Assembly (NCBI GenBank): GCA_903885965.1
Contig: CAISKQ010000035.1
Span: 3,926-67,925, forward strand
Origin: an uncultured bacterium
GTDB taxonomy: Bacteria; Patescibacteriota; Minisyncoccia; Moranbacterales; GWC2-37-73
Direction: 5' to 3'
DNA: 64,000 bases
The stretch's first letter is position 1, and each line of letters begins with the position of its first letter. The translations under genes and the position numbers were made by a program. Shown piece after piece: positions 3,290 to 48,786 of this stretch. The notes under the pieces are model-generated. The model was not told where the DNA came from and did not search any database. It was given only the letters and a program-made list of their open reading frames with translations.

Positions 3290-3733
3290 ATGAATGTAGA
3301 AGAATTTAGAAAAAAAATTAAAATAGATTTGAGAATAGTTGTTGATAATCAGATTTTTAAAATTGAGCAGCTAGTTAAATTTCGTTACGATGATGGTAGT
3401 TTTTATATTAAATGCTATTTACAAAACGGTTTTGTTTTGGCAGATGATTTGAATGATAATATTTTTGTATTCGTGAAAGAAATTCAAAGTGATATCCAAT
3501 TGCCTTTTTCAGAGAATTTAGAATTTGACGGAAAGAAATTTGAATTCTTGTTTGAGGCGCATGCTGTAGCTGAGGAAATCTGGGGGAAAGAACTTTTCAA
3601 AAAGAGTGAGGGAGAAAAATTTTGGGATTATAAAAGCGAGGATGAATCATATCTTAGCCTTGGTATTCACGATGAAACAGGTAAAAGGCAAGATTTTTAT
3701 GGAAAAATAATTAAGGATGTGGAGTTTTTATAA
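3290..3733 (+). CDS. Hypothetical protein
   Basis: 147 aa intact ORF; no confident family. Confidence 0.4.
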   Translation: MNVEEFRKKIKIDLRIVVDNQIFKIEQLVKFRYDDGSFYIKCYLQNGFVLADDLNDNIFVFVKEIQSDIQLPFSENLEFDGKKFEFLFEAHAVAEEIWGKELFKKSEGEKFWDYKSEDESYLSLGIHDETGKRQDFYGKIIKDVEFL

Positions 3734-3841
3734 TTTTGCTGTTTTATATTGCCATAATAGACTTAAATTGGTAAGATTGATTTATAAGAAATGTCAGCAT
3801 TAATGAATGTCATCTCGAACTCCATAGCGATGCGGCATGGT

Positions 3842-3920
3842 TGTCGTGTTTCAGGATTGAGGATGTATAAAGCTAGTTGAGATAAAAGAGGTAGATTCTG
3901 AAATAAATTCAGAATGACAC
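3842..3920 (+). repeat. Partially degenerate copy of the TGTCAT/ATGACA hairpin-pair intergenic element, ending 13 nt before the pheS ATG
   Basis: Contains 'ATTCTGAA-ataaa-TTCAGAAT-GACAC' (hairpin 2 plus terminus) and a remnant 'TGTC...TTTCAGGAT' of hairpin 1. Compare full copies at 29069-29154 and 42518-42605. Confidence 0.5.
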
Positions 3921-3933
3921 TCTAGCGAAGAAT

Positions 3934-4962
3934 ATGTTAAAAGAAAAAATTGTTAAAATCAAAGAAGAGGCACGGGTTGCAGTTGAAAACGCCAAAACTG
4001 TGGAAGATGTTTTGCAGCTCGAGATTCAGTTCTTGGGACGCAAAAGCGAGTTTGTGGGAATTTTAAGGCAACTTAAAGATGTTTCAGCGCAGGAAAAAAA
4101 AGAGGTTGGGCAACTGGCCAATTCTGTTAAGGTTGAAATTCAAAATCTGCTAGATCAAAAGAAAAAAAATCTCGCTTCAACTTTTGACGCAAAGGCGGAG
4201 AAAATTGACGTCACTGTTCCAGCCATCAAACTGCGCCAGGGACATCTCCATCCCTTGACTCAAATTCAAAATGAAATTGAAGACATTTTCACTTCGATGG
4301 GTTTTGAAATTGCCGATGGACCGGAAGTGGAAACAGAGTTCTATAATTTTGATGCTTTGAATATGCCTAAGGATCATCCAGCGCGTGATATGCAAGATAC
4401 CTTTTGGTTAAAAGCGGAAGCAGGAAAAGAAAAAATCGCACTTCGTCCAATGACTTCAGCAGTTCAAGTTCGTTATATGGAAAAACACCAACCGCCTTTT
4501 CGGATTATTGCGCCTGGAAGATGTTTTAGGAATGAAGCCACTGATACAACTCACGAGCATTCATTTAATCAATTCGAAGCTTTAGTCGTTGGTGATGATA
4601 TTAATGTTGGGAATATGAAATATATGGCCGAACAATTTTTTTCAGCTTTTTTCAAGCAAGAAGTTAAAGTTAGGTTGCGACCAAGTTATTTTCCATTCAC
4701 GGAACCAAGTTTTGAATTTGATATAAGTTGTTTAGTTTGTGGGCATAAAGGCTGTTCTTCTTGTCGAGGAGCTGGCTGGATAGAACTTGGTGGGGCTGGC
4801 ATGGTAAATCAAAATGTTTTTGTTGCTTCCGGTTATCCAAGAGGGAAATACCAAGGTTTTGCCTGGGGATTTGGACTTGAACGCTTGGCAATGATGAAAT
4901 ACAAAATTGACGACATTCGTCATTTTCACAGCGGCGATTTGAGGTTTATTAAACAATTCTAA
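3934..4962 (+). CDS. pheS: Phenylalanine--tRNA ligase alpha subunit
   Basis: Class II aaRS motifs including 'FNFDALNMPKDHPARDMQDTFW' and 'GFGLERLAMM'. Confidence 0.95.
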   Translation: MLKEKIVKIKEEARVAVENAKTVEDVLQLEIQFLGRKSEFVGILRQLKDVSAQEKKEVGQLANSVKVEIQNLLDQKKKNLASTFDAKAEKIDVTVPAIKLRQGHLHPLTQIQNEIEDIFTSMGFEIADGPEVETEFYNFDALNMPKDHPARDMQDTFWLKAEAGKEKIALRPMTSAVQVRYMEKHQPPFRIIAPGRCFRNEATDTTHEHSFNQFEALVVGDDINVGNMKYMAEQFFSAFFKQEVKVRLRPSYFPFTEPSFEFDISCLVCGHKGCSSCRGAGWIELGGAGMVNQNVFVASGYPRGKYQGFAWGFGLERLAMMKYKIDDIRHFHSGDLRFIKQF

Positions 4963-5115: not shown

Positions 5116-7533
5116 ATGAAATATTCTTACAGTTGGCTAAAAGAAATATCAGGAACAAAATTATCACCAGAAGAATTAATCCAGGGTATCACAATGCATG
5201 CGCTTGAAATTGAAGGCGTGGAAAAAGTTGGCTCAGATTTTGAAGGTGTGGTGGTGGGAGAAATCTTGGAAATATCCAAGCATCCAAATGCTGATAAACT
5301 GCAACTTACCAAAGTCAATATCGGAGACAAAGTCTTGGATATTGTTTGTGGTGCCAAAAATATTTCAGTGGGAGAAAAGGTTCCTGTGGCGCAGATTGGT
5401 TCAGTTCTGCCAGGTGATTTCAAGATCAAAGAAGCTGAAATCCGGGGTGTCAAATCCTTTGGTATGCTTTGCGCCCCAGATGAACTGGGGCTCGGCAGTG
5501 ATCATAGCGGTATTTTACTTTTGGAAAAATCTTTGAAAATTGGAACACCTCTAAGTGCATTGTTTGATGAGAAAGATCAAATTTTGGAAATTAAAGTATT
5601 GCCCGATAGGGCTCATGATGCAGTTAGTCACGTTGGGCTTGCTCGCGAAGTTGCTGCGCTTGATGGAGATATTATTGAATATGATTATGACGGCTTGAAA
5701 CTTGCGAAAAAGAAAACCTCGAGCATCACGGTTTCTATTGAAAATAAAGATTTGTGCGAGCGATATATTGCCGCAAAATTGGATAATGTAACCATTAAGC
5801 AATCTCCACAATGGATTTCAACTCGCTTGGAGAGGTGTGGAATCAGGTCAATCAACAATGTGGTTGATGTGACAAACTATGTAATGCTAGAACTTGGTCA
5901 ACCGATGCATGCATTTGATTTTGCACAAATTTCAAGCGGTGAAGTGGCGGAGATAATCATCAGGAATGCGAAAAAGGATGAAGAAATCGTGATTTTGGAT
6001 GGCAGTGTGAAAAAAATGTCCAGTGATGATGTTGTCATAGCAAACAAAACAGACGTGCTTGCGCTGGCTGGTGTTATGGGTGGCAAAAAAAGTGGAGTTA
6101 GCGAAAAAACCACGAGTATTATGCTTGAGTCAGCAACTTTCAATCCAACCTCTATTCGTAAAACAAAAAATAAGTTCACGCTCCAGACAGACGCTGCTAT
6201 GCGCTTTGAAAAAGGACTTGATCCTAATATTGCGGAAAAAGCGATGGTGCGAGCAATTGAGCTTTTAACCCACATTACTGACGCTAAACTGGCTGGAATT
6301 GTTGATGAGTATCCAACCGTTAAAAAAACTTGGACGATTAAACTTGATTTAAAATACGTAAATTCATTGCTCGGAGAAGAGATTCCTGCAAGTGTTAGCA
6401 AAAAAATTCTCACTTCGCTTGGCTGCGAGGTAAAAAACTCTGGAAAAGACTTGATAGTAACAGTTCCAACCTTTAGGCTTGATTTGCTCACGCAGGAAGA
6501 CTTGATTGAAGAAATCGGCAGAGTTTATGGTTATGAGAAAATTGTTGCAACGCCGCAAATGGTTTCCATAAAACCTCCTGTAGCTAGTGAAAAAAGAACT
6601 TTTGTCAGGAGCGTTAAAAATGTCCTGGTTGGGCTTGGATTTTCAGAAGTATACAACTATGCCTTTTATGGACGCAAAGACGCTGAGGCAGCAAAATTAC
6701 AAACATTCAAGCACTTAGAACTCGAACTCCCAATGAATTGCGAGCAGTCTATCTTGCGCGTGAGCTTGATCCCGAATTTACTGAAAAATGTACGGGAAAA
6801 CTTGAAACACACAAAGGAGATGCATATTTTTGAAATCGGAAAAGTTTTTCTGCCAAATGATGCCAAAGCTTTGCCAGCTGAAAAAAATATGCTCTGCGGC
6901 ATCGTGGTGCTTGAAAAGAAAGCAAACAAGAAAGGTGCTCAAGAAGATTTACAGCAAACTTTGTTTTTTTCGGCCAAATCCCTGGTAAACAATTTAATGA
7001 TACAGTTTGGCATAACAGATCAATATTACGCAGCCATGGAAGATGGCTTTGCACAAATTTCAAAAACTTTTTGCCATGAAGGTCGTGCCAGTGAGATTAA
7101 AATTGACGGAAGTGACCAAGCAATTGGTTGCATTGCAGAAATAAACCCGTTAGTTTTGGCTGATTTTGACGTCAGCGGCAGGGTGGCATTTTTCGAATTT
7201 GACCTTGAATTACTGCAAAACATTTCCAATGCTCAATGTGAGTTCAAATCAATTCCAAAATACCCGAATGTTATGAGGGATATTGCGATGATTGTCTCAG
7301 GAGGCCAGAGAGTGGATGATATTTTGGCTGTTATTCAAGCAGAAGGTGGAGATTTGATTGTGGATGCCGATTTGTTCGATATTTTTGATTTTGCCGACGG
7401 GACCTCGAATTATGCGTTTCATATCATGCTAAATGCTGAAAATAGGACGCTAACAAGCGAAGAAGTCGACATTATTATGAAAAAAATAGCTTCTAAATTG
7501 GAGGAAAAACTGGAAATTAAAATCAGAAAGTAG
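5116..7533 (+). CDS. pheT: Phenylalanine--tRNA ligase beta subunit
   Basis: 805 aa. N-terminal tRNA-binding domain 'KVNIGDKVLDIVCGA', B3/4 and B5 regions, and a C-terminal FDX-ACB-like domain. Immediately downstream of pheS. Confidence 0.95.
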   Translation: MKYSYSWLKEISGTKLSPEELIQGITMHALEIEGVEKVGSDFEGVVVGEILEISKHPNADKLQLTKVNIGDKVLDIVCGAKNISVGEKVPVAQIGSVLPGDFKIKEAEIRGVKSFGMLCAPDELGLGSDHSGILLLEKSLKIGTPLSALFDEKDQILEIKVLPDRAHDAVSHVGLAREVAALDGDIIEYDYDGLKLAKKKTSSITVSIENKDLCERYIAAKLDNVTIKQSPQWISTRLERCGIRSINNVVDVTNYVMLELGQPMHAFDFAQISSGEVAEIIIRNAKKDEEIVILDGSVKKMSSDDVVIANKTDVLALAGVMGGKKSGVSEKTTSIMLESATFNPTSIRKTKNKFTLQTDAAMRFEKGLDPNIAEKAMVRAIELLTHITDAKLAGIVDEYPTVKKTWTIKLDLKYVNSLLGEEIPASVSKKILTSLGCEVKNSGKDLIVTVPTFRLDLLTQEDLIEEIGRVYGYEKIVATPQMVSIKPPVASEKRTFVRSVKNVLVGLGFSEVYNYAFYGRKDAEAAKLQTFKHLELELPMNCEQSILRVSLIPNLLKNVRENLKHTKEMHIFEIGKVFLPNDAKALPAEKNMLCGIVVLEKKANKKGAQEDLQQTLFFSAKSLVNNLMIQFGITDQYYAAMEDGFAQISKTFCHEGRASEIKIDGSDQAIGCIAEINPLVLADFDVSGRVAFFEFDLELLQNISNAQCEFKSIPKYPNVMRDIAMIVSGGQRVDDILAVIQAEGGDLIVDADLFDIFDFADGTSNYAFHIMLNAENRTLTSEEVDIIMKKIASKLEEKLEIKIRK

Positions 7534-27716: not shown

Positions 27717-27825
27717 CTACGAATTACGAATTTTTACGAATGTACTAAGATGAAATAAATTATAGATTATTTTTTAACTGAAAACGAATCGAATTCGTAC
27801 ATTCGTACTCATTCGTAATTCGTAG
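27717..27825 (-). repeat. Long intercistronic hairpin filling the whole nifS-nifU gap (29 bp arms, 3 nt internal mismatch, 51 nt loop) built from TACGAA/TTCGTA units
   Basis: 27717-27745 pairs with 27797-27825, checked base by base. The 3' arm ends 6 nt before the nifU start codon. Confidence 0.6.
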
Positions 27826-29068: not shown

Positions 29069-29154
29069 TGTCATCCTGAACTTGTTTCAGGATCTTCTTC
29101 ATTTAACACTGGATGCGCTAAATTTCTGGATTCCGGATCAAGTCCGGAATGACA
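29069..29154. repeat. Complete copy of the roughly 88 bp composite TGTCAT-hairpin1-spacer-hairpin2-ATGACA intergenic element, 16 nt upstream of the nifS start
   Basis: TGTCAT + ATCCTGAA-cttgt-TTCAGGAT ... ATTCCGGA-tcaag-TCCGGAAT + GACAC. The terminal inverted repeats TGTCATCC/GGATGACA are perfect. Confidence 0.6.
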
Positions 29155-33302: not shown

Positions 33303-33344
33303 TGACATTCACTTTGATACTTTCGAGTATCAAAGTGAATGTCA
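33303..33344. promoter_or_regulatory. Perfect 18 bp-arm palindrome TGACATTCACTTTGATAC-tttcga-GTATCAAAGTGAATGTCA, between the second YerC/YecD gene and the downstream gene
   Basis: Checked base by base. A related half-conserved copy lies at 33943-33982, upstream of the same regulator gene. Confidence 0.55.
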
Positions 33345-33356
33345 CATTCTTCTTGC

Positions 33357-33887
33357 TTAATGAATAAGTTTTTTGAGTTTGTGATATAGCTCAGTTTTTT
33401 CCTTAGACTTTTCAAGCTCAGCTATGACATTTTTGATTTTTTCTTTTTGCCTGCGACTTGAATTAGCAACAATATTTTCAAGCAAAAGTTCTGGCCAATA
33501 ATAAGCCGGGAATCTTTTTTTGATTGACCCCCAATTCTCACCAATACCGACTTGCTGTTTGTCATTATTTTGATTAATTTTTTTCTTAGTGCGGGCAATA
33601 GCCTTCTGATAGCCCTCACCTGAAATCTTTAGCCACTCTTGCACGCGAGCAATGGTTGAGGAGCTAACAAGCAATTGCTCCTCAATTTCGCCATAGGTAC
33701 TGCCGCCGATCAAATACTCCGCAATCTTTAGTCTTTTGGCGATCATTTCTGATTCTTGATATGAAAGCAAATCTCGCAGGAGCTCCGCAGCCTCGTTAGG
33801 ATCTTTGATTTCAGAAATTGCTAAGCAAAGTTGGTATAAAATTTTATCAATTTCCTTTTTTGAAAGTTTTGAATTGAATTTAGCCAT
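33357..33887 (-). CDS. YerC/YecD family TrpR-like DNA-binding protein (second paralog)
   Basis: TrpR-like helix-turn-helix 'STYGEIEEQLLVSSSTIARVQEWL'; 176 aa with a longer C-terminal tail. Confidence 0.6.
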   Translation of the reverse strand: MAKFNSKLSKKEIDKILYQLCLAISEIKDPNEAAELLRDLLSYQESEMIAKRLKIAEYLIGGSTYGEIEEQLLVSSSTIARVQEWLKISGEGYQKAIARTKKKINQNNDKQQVGIGENWGSIKKRFPAYYWPELLLENIVANSSRRQKEKIKNVIAELEKSKEKTELYHKLKKLIH

Positions 33888-33942: not shown

Positions 33943-33982
33943 GCAAACGCTTTGATACTTTCGAGTATCGAAGTAAGTGTCA
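33943..33982. promoter_or_regulatory. Second, partly degenerate copy of the GATAC-TTTCGA-GTATC palindromic site, about 60 nt upstream of the YerC/YecD paralog start
   Basis: Core CTTTGATAC-TTTCGA-GTATCGAAG with a conserved right flank AGTaAGTGTCA. Confidence 0.45.
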
Positions 33983-34021
33983 TTTTTAACTTGGCTAAAT
34001 TTCTCGTTTCTTTACGTTGTG

Positions 34022-34643: not shown

Positions 34644-34915
34644 AAATCCTGTAACACTGAGTGGCCTTTAAATTCAAATTGAGTGTCCGTGCGCGTGACA
34701 CACTTTATTGCCAAATAAAATCAATTATAATTTCAACTGCCACAACGACCCCGTAACCTTTTTCTCATTATATTATATTTATGGATATAATAAAAATGAA
34801 AAAAGTGTTTGCGGAAAGATATATTTAAAATTTAACTACTTTAATAATAATTACGAACTATTTCAATCCCCTACTCGGTTATTGATTATTGGTTATTGAT
34901 TATTGTTTGTTGCTT

Positions 34916-41062: not shown

Positions 41063-41176
41063 ACTAAATCACCAAGATACAAGAAACAATAACCAAATAA
41101 TTTTTCAAATTAAAACAATTTTGATTATTGAATTTTGTGATTTGTTTGTATCTTGCTTCTTGATTATTGGTTATTT
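41063..41176 (-). promoter_or_regulatory. Conserved leader/intercistronic element upstream of rmlA, with inverted repeats built from CAAGATACAA / TTGTATCTTG and AATAACCAA / TTGGTTATT
   Basis: Shares these word blocks with 48096-48240 (upstream of rmlB) and 34865-34915 (upstream of rpmA). Confidence 0.4.
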
Positions 41177-42418
41177 TTAAACAGTTGGATATATCGGATA
41201 TTTTTTGCAAAATATTGTTACCTCTTTTTTAATTTGAGCAAGAATTTTTTTATCATCGTGTGCAATAATAATCTCTTCAATCCAGCCAGCAATCATTTTG
41301 ATTTCTTTTTCTTTCATGCCTCGACTTGTGATTGCTTGGACTCCAATTCTAATTCCGCTTGGATCCATCGGAGAGCGAGGATCATCTGGAATCATATTTT
41401 TGTTAACGGTAATACCTGACTCGTCCAGCGCATGCTCTGCTTGTTTGCCAGTAATTCCCTTGCTACCCATCACGTCAACTAGGATCATATGATAATCGGT
41501 TCCGCCAAACATAATTTTAAAATCTCTTTTCGTAAGTTCAATTTCAAGCACTTTCGCATTTTTAATTACTTGTTTGGCATATGATTTAAACGCGGGCCTC
41601 AAGGCTTCGCCAAATGCTACAGCTTTAGCGGCAACATTATTCATGTGCGGGCCTCCTTGAAAACCAGGAAAAGCAGACTTATCAATAGCTTTAGCAAACG
41701 CTTGTTTACACATAATCATTCCACCGCGAGGACCTCGAAGCGTCTTATGTGTTGTGGTCGTCACGATATCAAAATATGGAACTGGATTTTCAATTGCTTT
41801 TCCAGCAATCAAGCCTGCAATATGCGCAATATCAAACATAGAAATTGCGCCAACTTTTTTGGCAATCGCTTGGAATTTTTTGTAATCAAACTGTCGAGTG
41901 TAGGCCGAAAAACCAGCTAAAATAAGTTTTGGCTTGTGCTCGAGGGCCAATTTCTCAAGCTGCTTATAATCAATTTCTCCGGCCTGGTTCGTTTTGTAAC
42001 CGATGAAATTATATATTTGAGCTGAAAGTGTGAGCGGATGACCATGCGTCAAGTGTCCTCCATGAGAAAGGTCCATACCAAGAACCGTATCGCCCGGTTT
42101 CAAAATCGCATTGTAGGCAATCATATTAGCTGGCGCTCCAGAATGAGGCTGCACATTGACATGCTCGGCGCCGAAAATTTTCTTTGCTCGCTCAATAGCC
42201 AAGGATTCAACTTGATCGGTAAATTGCTGGCCTCCGTAATATCTTTTGCCAGGATAACCCTCGGAATATTTATTCGTGAAAACACTGCCAAGCGCTTCAA
42301 GCACGGCCTTGGAAACATAGTTCTCACTGGCAATAAGTTCCATCCCCTCTTGTTGGCGTTTGATTTCGCCAGTAATGGCAGCGTATATTTGTTTGTCTTG
42401 TTTTTTCAAATTTTGCAT
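41177..42418 (-). CDS. glyA: Serine hydroxymethyltransferase
   Basis: PLP-lysine motif 'TTTTHKTLRGPRGG'; 413 aa. Confidence 0.95.
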   Translation of the reverse strand: MQNLKKQDKQIYAAITGEIKRQQEGMELIASENYVSKAVLEALGSVFTNKYSEGYPGKRYYGGQQFTDQVESLAIERAKKIFGAEHVNVQPHSGAPANMIAYNAILKPGDTVLGMDLSHGGHLTHGHPLTLSAQIYNFIGYKTNQAGEIDYKQLEKLALEHKPKLILAGFSAYTRQFDYKKFQAIAKKVGAISMFDIAHIAGLIAGKAIENPVPYFDIVTTTTHKTLRGPRGGMIMCKQAFAKAIDKSAFPGFQGGPHMNNVAAKAVAFGEALRPAFKSYAKQVIKNAKVLEIELTKRDFKIMFGGTDYHMILVDVMGSKGITGKQAEHALDESGITVNKNMIPDDPRSPMDPSGIRIGVQAITSRGMKEKEIKMIAGWIEEIIIAHDDKKILAQIKKEVTIFCKKYPIYPTV

Positions 42419-42517
42419 ATCTATAAAATTTGCTTAAGTTAATTAAGAATAAAAACGATATTTAGAATACTTAAGCCAGGCGATTAGATCATAGTATTGG
42501 TAAAATTAAAATAATCA

Positions 42518-42605
42518 TGTCATGCTGAACTTGTTTCAGCATCTTTATTATAGAGAACTTTATAAAACAAAGAAAATAGATCCTGAAATAAATTCAGGAT
42601 GACAC
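42518..42605. repeat. Second complete copy of the composite TGTCAT-hairpin-spacer-hairpin-ATGACA element, between glyA and rmlD
   Basis: TGTCAT + ATGCTGAA-cttgt-TTCAGCAT ... ATCCTGAA-ataaa-TTCAGGAT + GACAC. Relative to copy A, hairpin 1 carries compensatory changes C-G to G-C. On the minus strand, hairpin 2 plus a T-rich spacer look like the rmlD terminator. Confidence 0.6.
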
Positions 42606-48095: not shown

Positions 48096-48240
48096 AAAAA
48101 TTTTATCAAAGACACAATAACCAAGATACAAACACCAAACAAGATTTAATAATCAATTTTCAAATATTCAAACAGTTTGTATTTTTGGATCTTGAAATTT
48201 GGAATTTGTTTGGTTATTGCTTCTTGTGTCTTGGTTATTA
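48096..48240 (-). promoter_or_regulatory. Leader element upstream of rmlB sharing AATAACCAA / CAAGAAGCAA / ACAAACAAAT ... TTGTATCTTGGTTATTG blocks with the rmlA leader
   Basis: Minus-strand words 'ACCAAGATACAAAC' and 'TTGGTTATTGCTTCTTG' recur at 41063-41176. Confidence 0.4.
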
Positions 48241-48786
48241 TTAAAATGGTGAATTAAATCCTTCGAACGTCTGCGCTTTGGAATCTTTGTCTGATAAAAT
48301 CGGATTTTCAAGTGGCCAATAAATTTTCAGGGTTGGGTCGTTCCAAGCAATTGAGTGTTCGCTTTCAGGGGCGTAATAGCTGTCACATTTGTATTGAAAT
48401 TCGGTGTAGTCTTCTAATGTGCAAAAGCCATGCGCAAAACCGCGCGGCACAAAAAGCATCAAATGATTGTCGTCAGTCAGTTCAAAACTTTCCCATTGTC
48501 CGAAAGTTGGCGAATCTTTGCGCAAGTCCACAATCACGTCGTAGGCGGCTCCTTTCGTCACTCGAACAAGTTTGGCTTGAGTGTGTGGCGGATTTTGAAA
48601 ATGGAGTCCGCGCAGTACACCTTTGGTGACTGACATGGAATGATTGTCTTGCACAAAATCGGTTATGATGCCGATTTCTTCAAACTTCTTCTTTGAGTAG
48701 GTTTCTTCAAAAAAACCTCTTTCATCCTGAGAGACCTTGGGTTTAATAAGGTATGCACCGTTTAAGCTCTTTTTTATAATTTCCAT
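48241..48786 (-). CDS. rmlC: dTDP-4-dehydrorhamnose 3,5-epimerase
   Basis: 'YLIKPKVSQDERGFFEETY' and 'GVLRGLHFQ' cupin motifs. Confidence 0.9.
   Translation of the reverse strand: MEIIKKSLNGAYLIKPKVSQDERGFFEETYSKKKFEEIGIITDFVQDNHSMSVTKGVLRGLHFQNPPHTQAKLVRVTKGAAYDVIVDLRKDSPTFGQWESFELTDDNHLMLFVPRGFAHGFCTLEDYTEFQYKCDSYYAPESEHSIAWNDPTLKIYWPLENPILSDKDSKAQTFEGFNSPF

Follow-up and report, generated by a model that had tools for sequence, protein, structure and literature searches.

The stretch analysed here (the window) is 64,000 nucleotides of contig CAISKQ010000035.1 from an uncultured Moranbacteria genome of the Candidate Phyla Radiation (CPR), and three of its intergenic loci carry a composite palindromic element bounded by TGTCAT and ATGACA. 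We conclude with considerable confidence that these loci are heads-out dimers of CGTC/TGTC-tagged repetitive extragenic palindromic sequences (REPs) of the CGTC-2 type, the hairpin motifs that flank genes of the Ssn family. The Ssn proteins are single-domain GIY-YIG single-strand DNA endonucleases of ~90 amino acids that bind and cut such hairpins in the species tested (PMC11893778). What we describe is a known and widespread repeat class in a new host lineage, a Moranbacteria genome. An initial annotation, made from the letters of the window, had recognised a palindromic intergenic element resembling REPs or MITEs (miniature inverted-repeat transposable elements), with compensatory changes in its stems, and this reading was correct. 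It had added that no such element was known for this kind of genome; the element is nevertheless not of a new kind, since both the CGTC/TGTC-tagged REP superfamily (PMC3733652) and the hairpin motifs related to Ssn (SRMs; PMC11893778) accommodate it.

What defines the repeat unit? Each unit is directional and consists of an unpaired YGTC head, an 8-bp stem, a loop of 4-5 nt and a short C-rich tail. A script that looks for GTCAT, an 8-bp stem whose first base is the A of that motif, and a loop of 5 nt finds five perfect units in the window, at 29070(+), 29153(-), 42519(+), 42603(-) and 3918(-). All five have a TGTC head, a stem whose first pairs are A-T and then T-A, and a 5-nt loop, and their tails read CTT, CTT, CCA, CTA and CTA. 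In the two intact dimers the TGTC heads face outward across spacers of 36 and 37 nt, in agreement with the ~35 nt first estimated, and all three window dimers are heterodimers. One compensated pair separates the stem ATCCTGAA/TTCAGGAT from ATGCTGAA/TTCAGCAT, and three separate ATTCCGGA/TCCGGAAT from ATCCTGAA/TTCAGGAT, bearing out the earlier observation that paired substitutions preserve base pairing. Folded as single-stranded DNA, the arms of copy 1 form separate hairpins (z -3.5 and -4.7), the near-complementary arms of copy 2 form one long hairpin, and in copy 3 the right hairpin alone folds.

Chance alone would not be expected to yield this number of units. Block-shuffled windows contain a mean of 0.34 units and a maximum of 2, versus the 5 observed, and the 24-nt pattern GTCATSCTGAACTTGTTTCAGSAT, with three mismatches allowed, has no match in 100 shuffles. 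A covariance model built from such hairpins (R1) and run over the whole window with filters off returns exactly the five window units, at 40-45 bits (E<=8e-9), and the next match scores 11 bits. The motif is directional, since the opposite strand of each unit scores only ~10 bits with the same model. Covariation, which had been noticed among three copies, extends well beyond them: in an alignment of 31 distinct units with 5-nt loops (A3), 7 of the 8 pairs change on both sides (53 cells), an outcome matched by 0 of 500 shuffles, and sliding the partner columns drops pairing to 19-51%. In the unshifted alignment 98.8% of cells are paired. This percentage is partly built in, as only hairpins with 7 or more of the 8 pairs had been admitted, and it is the number of compensatory changes that carries weight. 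Of the 31 units, 30 have A-T as their first pair and 27 have T-A as their second, and the first tail position is an invariant C.

Coordinates of the three window copies and of their repeat units, with scores from covariance model R1 (SHMT, serine hydroxymethyltransferase; ORF, open reading frame).
Feature	Position (strand)	Length	Head	Stem	Loop	Tail	R1 score	Flanking genes
Copy 1, complete heads-out heterodimer	29069..29154	86 bp						Rrf2 stop 29165 / nifS start 29052, both minus strand
Copy 1, left unit	29069..29097 (+)		TGTC	ATCCTGAA/TTCAGGAT	CTTGT	CTTC	44.8 bits, E 4.6e-10	
Copy 1, right unit	29126..29154 (-)		TGTC	ATTCCGGA/TCCGGAAT	CTTGA	CCAG	44.0 bits	
Copy 2, complete heads-out heterodimer	42518..42604	87 bp						RmlD stop codon 42611-42613 (minus) / SHMT start 42418
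Copy 2, left unit	42518..42546 (+)			ATGCTGAA/TTCAGCAT	CTTGT		43.7 bits	
Copy 2, right unit	42576..42604 (-)			ATCCTGAA/TTCAGGAT	TTTAT		40.9 bits	
Copy 3, dimer with disrupted left arm	3808..3919	112 bp						unknown ORF 3290-3733 / pheS 3934, both plus strand
Copy 3, right unit, intact	3891..3919 (-)			ATTCTGAA/TTCAGAAT	TTTAT		40.3 bits	

All three copies lie at the loci named in the initial annotation, with the sequences described there and small corrections to the coordinates. The boundaries of copy 1 are unchanged, while the right ends of copies 2 and 3 move by one position, from 42605 to 42604 and from 3920 to 3919. The start of copy 3 had been placed too far to the right, at 3842; it is at 3808 (TGTCATCTCGAAC...), and the left hairpin is split by ~25 nt, with TGTCATCTCGAACT on one side of the interruption and TGTTTCAGGAT on the other, an arm that model R1 does not detect. 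Similarly, the terminal inverted repeats are perfect over the 6 bp TGTCAT/ATGACA, whereas the 8 nt originally quoted match at seven of eight positions.

The assignment to the CGTC-2 type follows from a published classification in which REPs split into GTAG-tagged and CGTC-tagged superfamilies (Di Nocera, De Gregorio, Rocco 2013, BMC Genomics 14:522; PMC3733652). According to that study, the CGTC repeats carry the head CGTC, or TGTC in many cases, usually form dimers whose units are 20-100 bp apart, are located between unidirectional or convergent ORFs, apparently have no dedicated transposase, and include the Neisseria dRS3 and the Rickettsia RPE-4 and RPE-6 repeats. Its supplement reports that a CGTC-2 unit of Sulfurovum encodes the peptide RHSELVSGS. 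Because RHSELVSGS is the translation of CGTCATTCTGAACTTGTTTCAGGATC, the hairpin type of the window, we assign the window hairpin to CGTC-2, judging by this peptide rather than by a consensus sequence. The two have in common an unpaired CGTC or TGTC head, an 8-bp stem opening with A-T then T-A, a 5-nt loop and a C-rich tail, as well as an organisation into mostly inverted dimers, often heterodimers, with 20-100-bp spacers between unidirectional ORFs; we infer that the heads-out arrangement of the window dimers equals the 'HH' type of that paper. They differ in that all window heads are TGTC and that the tails read CTN in four of five units rather than CCA. Likewise, Neisseria dRS3/NIME, Rickettsia RPE-4/RPE-6 and the Rfam family RF02625 belong to the same YGTCAT-hairpin superfamily but have stems of the TCCCGCG type. 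A full-text literature search found no paper containing the CTGAA hairpin sequence. We came across no report of these repeats in CPR genomes, and in this narrow sense the initial annotation may be right that such an element is not known for this kind of genome.

The hairpin is abundant in other genomes; the initial annotation had proposed a search for further copies, the lack of which would have counted against it. Exact matches to GTCATNCTGAANTTNTTTCAGNAT, a 24-nt hairpin pattern in which 20 bases are fixed, are present in 96 stretches of viral contigs from IMG/VR and in more than 120 stretches (a lower bound) of a collection of species-representative genomes. Among the matches listed are Gracilibacteria, Saccharibacteria, Nomurabacteria, Peribacteria, Bacteroidota (many of them Pedobacter), Sphingomonadaceae, Treponema, Nitrospirota, Melainabacteria, Endomicrobium, Ignavibacterium, a Rickettsia endosymbiont and a Nanoarchaeota metagenome-assembled genome (MAG); these labels are record titles, and those of MAGs, such as Nanoarchaeota, may reflect binning errors. 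Overall, the CTGAA-type unit is near-identical across more than 10 bacterial phyla, a DPANN-labelled MAG and viral contigs, in hosts that include genomes of 65-70% G+C. Many of the matches elsewhere are heads-out dimers resembling those of the window. In loci selected for the hairpin, 124 pairs are heads-out, 37 heads-in and 24 tandem, with a median spacer of 32 nt. Across 137 dimers, the base preceding GTC is C in 56% and T in 37%.

Two groups of these loci deserve separate mention. Some 15-20 of the IMG/VR hairpin contigs (loci L016-L052) share a syntenic capsid/portal-like gene set with dimers between its genes, and the A/T-rich hairpin is unchanged there in DNA of 65-70% G+C, that is, in G+C-rich hosts. 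This gene set is probably a gene transfer agent (GTA)-like or prophage region of Sphingomonadales. In the Rickettsia endosymbiont (L161, ~600-720), a CTGAA-type dimer is nested in a hairpin element of the TCCCGCG type (GAAGGCGGGAATCCAG ... CTGGATTCCCGCCTTCGCGGGAATGACA); within the superfamily, elements of one stem type insert into those of another.

Which gene accompanies the hairpins? Chenal et al. (2025, Nat Commun 16:2388; PMC11893778) described SsnA as a 94-aa single-domain GIY-YIG protein (cd10448) and reported that NTS hairpins, generalised as SRMs, flank 71% of ssn homologs and lie on both sides of 42%. Our results replicate this association independently, from both directions. In the forward test we clustered all ORFs in ~200 hairpin-selected loci, and the sole recurrent small ORF family beside the hairpins is a ~95-aa protein with a GIY-YIG domain (PF01541), whose gene lies within ~100 nt of hairpins in 5 of 6 hairpin-selected loci. 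The prophage/GTA-like gene set of the viral contigs and ABC transporters also recur near hairpins; we dismissed them as unrelated. In the reverse test, metagenome contigs were scanned for the gene alone with an alignment of the GIY-YIG proteins (A1), giving 80 loci. A GTCAY hairpin is present in 56 of these 80 and lies 250 nt or less from the GIY-YIG gene in 50. Typically, a (+) hairpin precedes the start codon by a median of 34 nt and a (-) hairpin follows the stop by a median of 33 nt. The window dimers have this same heads-out layout, with a spacer where these loci have the gene. Hairpin density in the gene-selected loci is ~100-fold over shuffles, and correctly oriented GTCAY heads with at least 7 of 8 pairs are concentrated near the gene: 75 of 154 at 20-130 nt from it, versus 15 of 668 beyond 400 nt. 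Most of 19 viral loci that were likewise chosen by the gene show the flanking hairpins with model R1.

Stems vary among the Ssn loci (CTGAA/TTCAG, TCCGGA, TCCCGCG, TGCGGG, CCCGGCG and others), and the head, the stem length, the first two pairs and the loop length are constant. The hairpin sequences of the window are among those found beside the gene. CTGAA/TCCGGA-type hairpins flank Ssn ORFs in L220, L230, L233, L236, L247, L252, L261, L263, L269, L270, L280, L283, L284, L299 and others. The 24-mer of the left unit of copy 1 is identical to hairpins flanking Ssn ORFs in L230, L247 and others, that of its right unit to hairpins in L233 and L252, and the left hairpin of copy 2 is the commonest type flanking Ssn ORFs. 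In two G+C-rich metagenome loci (L248:815-2238 and L251:2712-4140) ssn lies directly upstream of pheS, as does copy 3; this shared position may be a coincidence or a preferred site.

The window hairpins resemble the NTS/SRM hairpins in being directional, in conserving the upstream GTCAT part and in that hairpins of these very sequences flank ssn on both sides; NTS/SRM hairpins reach hundreds of copies per genome in some hosts. They differ in that the window stems are A/T-richer and that no ssn is seen in the window. In addition, the biochemistry concerns NTS-type hairpins, the CTGAA type being known here by its sequence, and the known role, in limiting transformation, was demonstrated in Neisseria only.

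Several points weigh against linking the window copies to Ssn, beside the pre-selection of hairpins for pairing and the doubtful MAG labels mentioned above. Neither the 64-kb window nor ~165 kb of contigs from related Moranbacteria contains a GIY-YIG ORF of the ssn family; the relative L305 has a 96-aa ORF next to a hairpin, but it is not GIY-YIG. The published SRM string, HGTCWYN(0-2)YYVSBRHN(0-5)WNVSBRGN(0-2)RNCYNB, matches the Neisseria NTS and none of the five window units. The window units miss it because their stems are A/T-richer than the G+C-rich ones from which it was derived. Stems of the CTGAA and TCCGGA types fall outside the string, yet in our loci they flank ssn genes equally often, and it is our co-location analysis that ties them to Ssn. 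Furthermore, the role demonstrated for Ssn in Neisseria is to limit transformation rather than to move repeats, and an Ssn partner in this lineage is putative.

The main rival to a partnership with Ssn names another enzyme. On this reading a RAYT (REP-associated tyrosine transposase, of the HUH/Y1 kind) would mobilise the units as its REPINs, and the GIY-YIG gene would be a passenger inserted between REP pairs. In outline, the REPIN-RAYT system (Bertels and Rainey 2011; Nunvar et al. 2010) does resemble what we see: it has a short tagged hairpin, inverted doublets that replicate without duplicating the target site, and a small nuclease gene with its own repeats on either side. The inverted dimers and the lack of target-site duplication would fit single-strand HUH transposition, and a Neisseria hairpin of the same superfamily, ATTCCCGCGCAGGCGGGAATC, has been described as the REPIN of a Group-2 RAYT (Bertels et al., bioRxiv 10.1101/2021.07.10.451892). 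The two systems nevertheless differ in head, GTAG there and YGTC here, and in enzyme, an HUH/Y1 transposase there and a GIY-YIG nuclease here. RAYT and IS200 genes exist in CGTC-bearing species, but none is flanked by CGTC units (PMC3733652), and the unbiased screen that led to the nuclease singled out ssnA (PMC11893778). Across our ~200 loci no transposase family recurs beside the hairpins, only GIY-YIG does, and the window ORFs scanned, which are housekeeping and cell-envelope genes, include no transposase, Y1 or other. On balance we regard mobilisation by a RAYT as very improbable and retain Ssn as the more fitting partner.

Homologues of the window's NifS bear the names Candidatus Moranbacteria or Moraniibacteriota, in keeping with a CPR/Patescibacteria genome. 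Comparison with close Moranbacteria relatives indicates that the copies have been gained and lost, because these relatives are without them at equivalent sites. Such empty sites, whose existence the initial annotation had asked about, are found at the equivalent operon junctions. The spacer between Rrf2 and nifS, which holds copy 1 in the window, measures 32 nt and lacks the element in L304 (NifS 93% identical), measures 8 nt and lacks it in L305-L307 (89%), and measures 186 nt in L308-L310 (93%), where it contains an unrelated palindromic element. Copy 3 is missing from L300, which has ~87% DNA identity around pheS and retains only TGTCAT-C-ATGACA (TGTCATCATGACA) at L300:13765-13777, both termini of copy 3 abutted with the interior gone. 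This TGTCATCATGACA looks like an internal deletion of an old copy or a proto-site. We rejected the mini-palindrome as a general footprint of the elements, since such head-to-head palindromes are not enriched (30 observed versus 44 in shuffles). L305 and L306 encode identical NifS, yet a 93-nt dimer stands between two genes in only one of them. Relatives carry dimers at other sites, including the TCCGGA plus CCTGAA pairing of copy 1, and the similarity among copies is not due to duplicated neighbouring genes, the origin that the initial annotation had set against its own reading.

Other palindromes accompany the dimers in these relatives. The element in the 186-nt spacers (L308:9815-10000, L310:5932-6117) reads CCCCTTTTAGAAAAAGGGG ... 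CCTCCCTTTTCCAAAGGGAGG, and similar G/C-tract hairpins adjoin GTCAT hairpins in viral loci L004, L029 and L032; small palindromes seem to insert preferentially in the Rrf2-nifS spacer. L308 also carries three heterodimers (3676-3785, 4241-4350 and 6942-7049) in which a left arm with a long loop containing TGCCTGTC(C/A)GCCTTTGGAG is joined to a canonical right unit, resembling the disrupted left arm of copy 3 in layout and not in sequence.

The elements are short, end in terminal inverted repeats, are dispersed between genes and differ in presence or absence among relatives, as would also be expected of classical MITEs, in this case ones that descend from an insertion sequence with a DDE transposase and have TGTCAT as their terminal inverted repeats. 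We give this explanation almost no credence. Among 137 dimers there is no excess of 3-5-nt direct repeats at offsets 0-3, and a ~twofold excess of 2-nt matches occurs at one offset. With no target-site duplication at any offset, the dimers argue against a DDE-type MITE and fit a single-strand mechanism. Moreover, what is conserved is not a linear inverted repeat but a hairpin that is specific to one strand and whose stems covary. The gene that such ends enclose encodes a 90-aa GIY-YIG nuclease and not a DDE transposase, and no DDE insertion sequence with these ends was seen.

A further possibility is suggested by the gene context, namely that the elements are cis-acting RNA structures (terminators, stabilisers or leaders) that regulate nifS, pheS and rmlD/glyA. 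By Pfam, copy 1 lies between Rrf2 and NifS on the minus strand, copy 2 between RmlD and SHMT on the minus strand, and copy 3 between an unknown ORF and PheS on the plus strand; all three are thus between co-directional genes, near a stop or start codon. The gene context first given for them holds up: copy 1, past the Rrf2 stop, ends 16 nt before the nifS start, copy 3 ends 14 nt before the pheS start (13 nt if its end is set at 3920, as in the initial annotation), and copy 2 starts 6 nt past the RmlD stop codon, 99 nt upstream of the SHMT start. In a simple terminator scan, run on copy 2 only, the T-rich spacer CTATTTTCTT together with the right arm before it, whose 8 pairs include 3 of G-C, passes on the minus strand, which is the transcribed one, and copy 2 may have a side effect on rmlD termination. 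REPs are, moreover, often transcribed (PMC3733652).

Matches to known RNA families are few and weak. At gathering thresholds no Rfam family is matched anywhere in the window, and at permissive E-values around copy 1 nothing credible appears, the top scores being 17-18 bits versus thresholds of 65-90. The best informative sub-threshold match is RF02625 (Wolbachia sRNA 46), at 17.9 bits versus a threshold of 65.3; because its consensus opens with GUGUCAU and closes with AUGACAC, as the window dimers do, Wolbachia sRNA 46 is itself probably transcribed from a repeat of the YGTCAT-hairpin superfamily. Three further observations speak against cis-acting RNA structures: the junctions of relatives with 89-93% identical NifS are without the element or hold an unrelated palindrome, the identical motif occurs in unrelated contexts across phyla, and the dimers are symmetric and hence not oriented to transcription. 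A dedicated regulatory RNA is unlikely, given the missing elements in the relatives and the lack of an Rfam family at threshold. The suggestion of a small structured RNA, made in the initial annotation, likewise finds no support in Rfam or in the published partner enzyme, since Ssn binds single-stranded DNA and not RNA (PMC11893778). We therefore hold RNA-level regulation to be highly improbable as the explanation of the repeats, and any RNA effect is probably secondary.

How might an Ssn protein act on the dimers? Ssn binds only one of the two strands of its hairpin, in single-stranded DNA, and its cut falls upstream of the head, at a distance of a few nucleotides. The protein is inactive on double-stranded DNA and on RNA, and in N. 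meningitidis it lowers transformation by NTS-bearing DNA (PMC11893778). The NTS-ssnA-NTS layout has been described as insertion-sequence-like (PMC11893778). Because the heads of the window dimers point outward as in SRM-ssn-SRM, the window copies represent that cassette in a gene-less, non-autonomous form, by analogy with REPINs or MITEs. A heads-out dimer would then present two putative Ssn cleavage sites just outside its two ends, on opposite strands. Cuts at these positions would suit excision or copying while the DNA is single-stranded, during replication or DNA uptake. For its copies, this genome would need to encode an Ssn outside the window, or the copies would have spread while one was present, and any effects of the hairpins on the Rrf2-nifS and rmlD-glyA transcripts would be by-products.

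The window contains other intergenic repeats. A second and unrelated hairpin repeat, at 33304-33345, is a perfect palindrome with a 19-bp stem, TGACATTCACTTTGATACT-TTCG-AGTATCAAAGTGAATGTCA, located 12 nt past the stop of a Trp-repressor-like ORF (33357-33887, minus), with a partial copy at 33950-33990 on the other side of the ORF. Between the nifS stop and the nifU start (27717-27825) lie two 32-nt arms, 88% complementary, made of TACGAAT-like units, and in viral locus L011 similar TACGAAT-type sequence borders a hairpin dimer. Intergenic repeats of low complexity, of the TTGATTATTG / TTGGTTATTG type and both direct and inverted, occur at 34868-34915, 41067-41190 and 48104-48254. Finally, a same-strain Logan contig (L303:1-129, equivalent to window 42419-42547) terminates within copy 2, an instance of the repeat breaking short-read assemblies.

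These findings add a CPR genome, that of a member of the Moranbacteria, to the known hosts of Ssn-type hairpin repeats. They also show that A/T-rich hairpins of the CTGAA type flank ssn genes in the same way as the described motifs do, though the published SRM string misses them, and published counts of the motif and of Ssn-motif pairs are thus probably underestimates. For genome annotation, the elements are to be masked as repeats, as they break assemblies and yield spurious ORFs. Given the near-identity of the CTGAA-type unit across phyla and its occurrence in reduced CPR genomes in which no ssn gene was seen, one could further imagine that the ~400-bp Ssn cassette and its gene-less dimers are now spreading between phyla, possibly on phage DNA, and that in CPR bacteria, which live by the uptake of foreign DNA, the hairpins serve as tags that gate incoming single-stranded DNA, on the model of the gating of transformation by NTS/Ssn in Neisseria; we offer this as a speculation that is unlikely to hold. 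Differences in occupancy between near-identical strains, such as those seen here, constitute a natural system for asking whether Ssn moves the hairpins.

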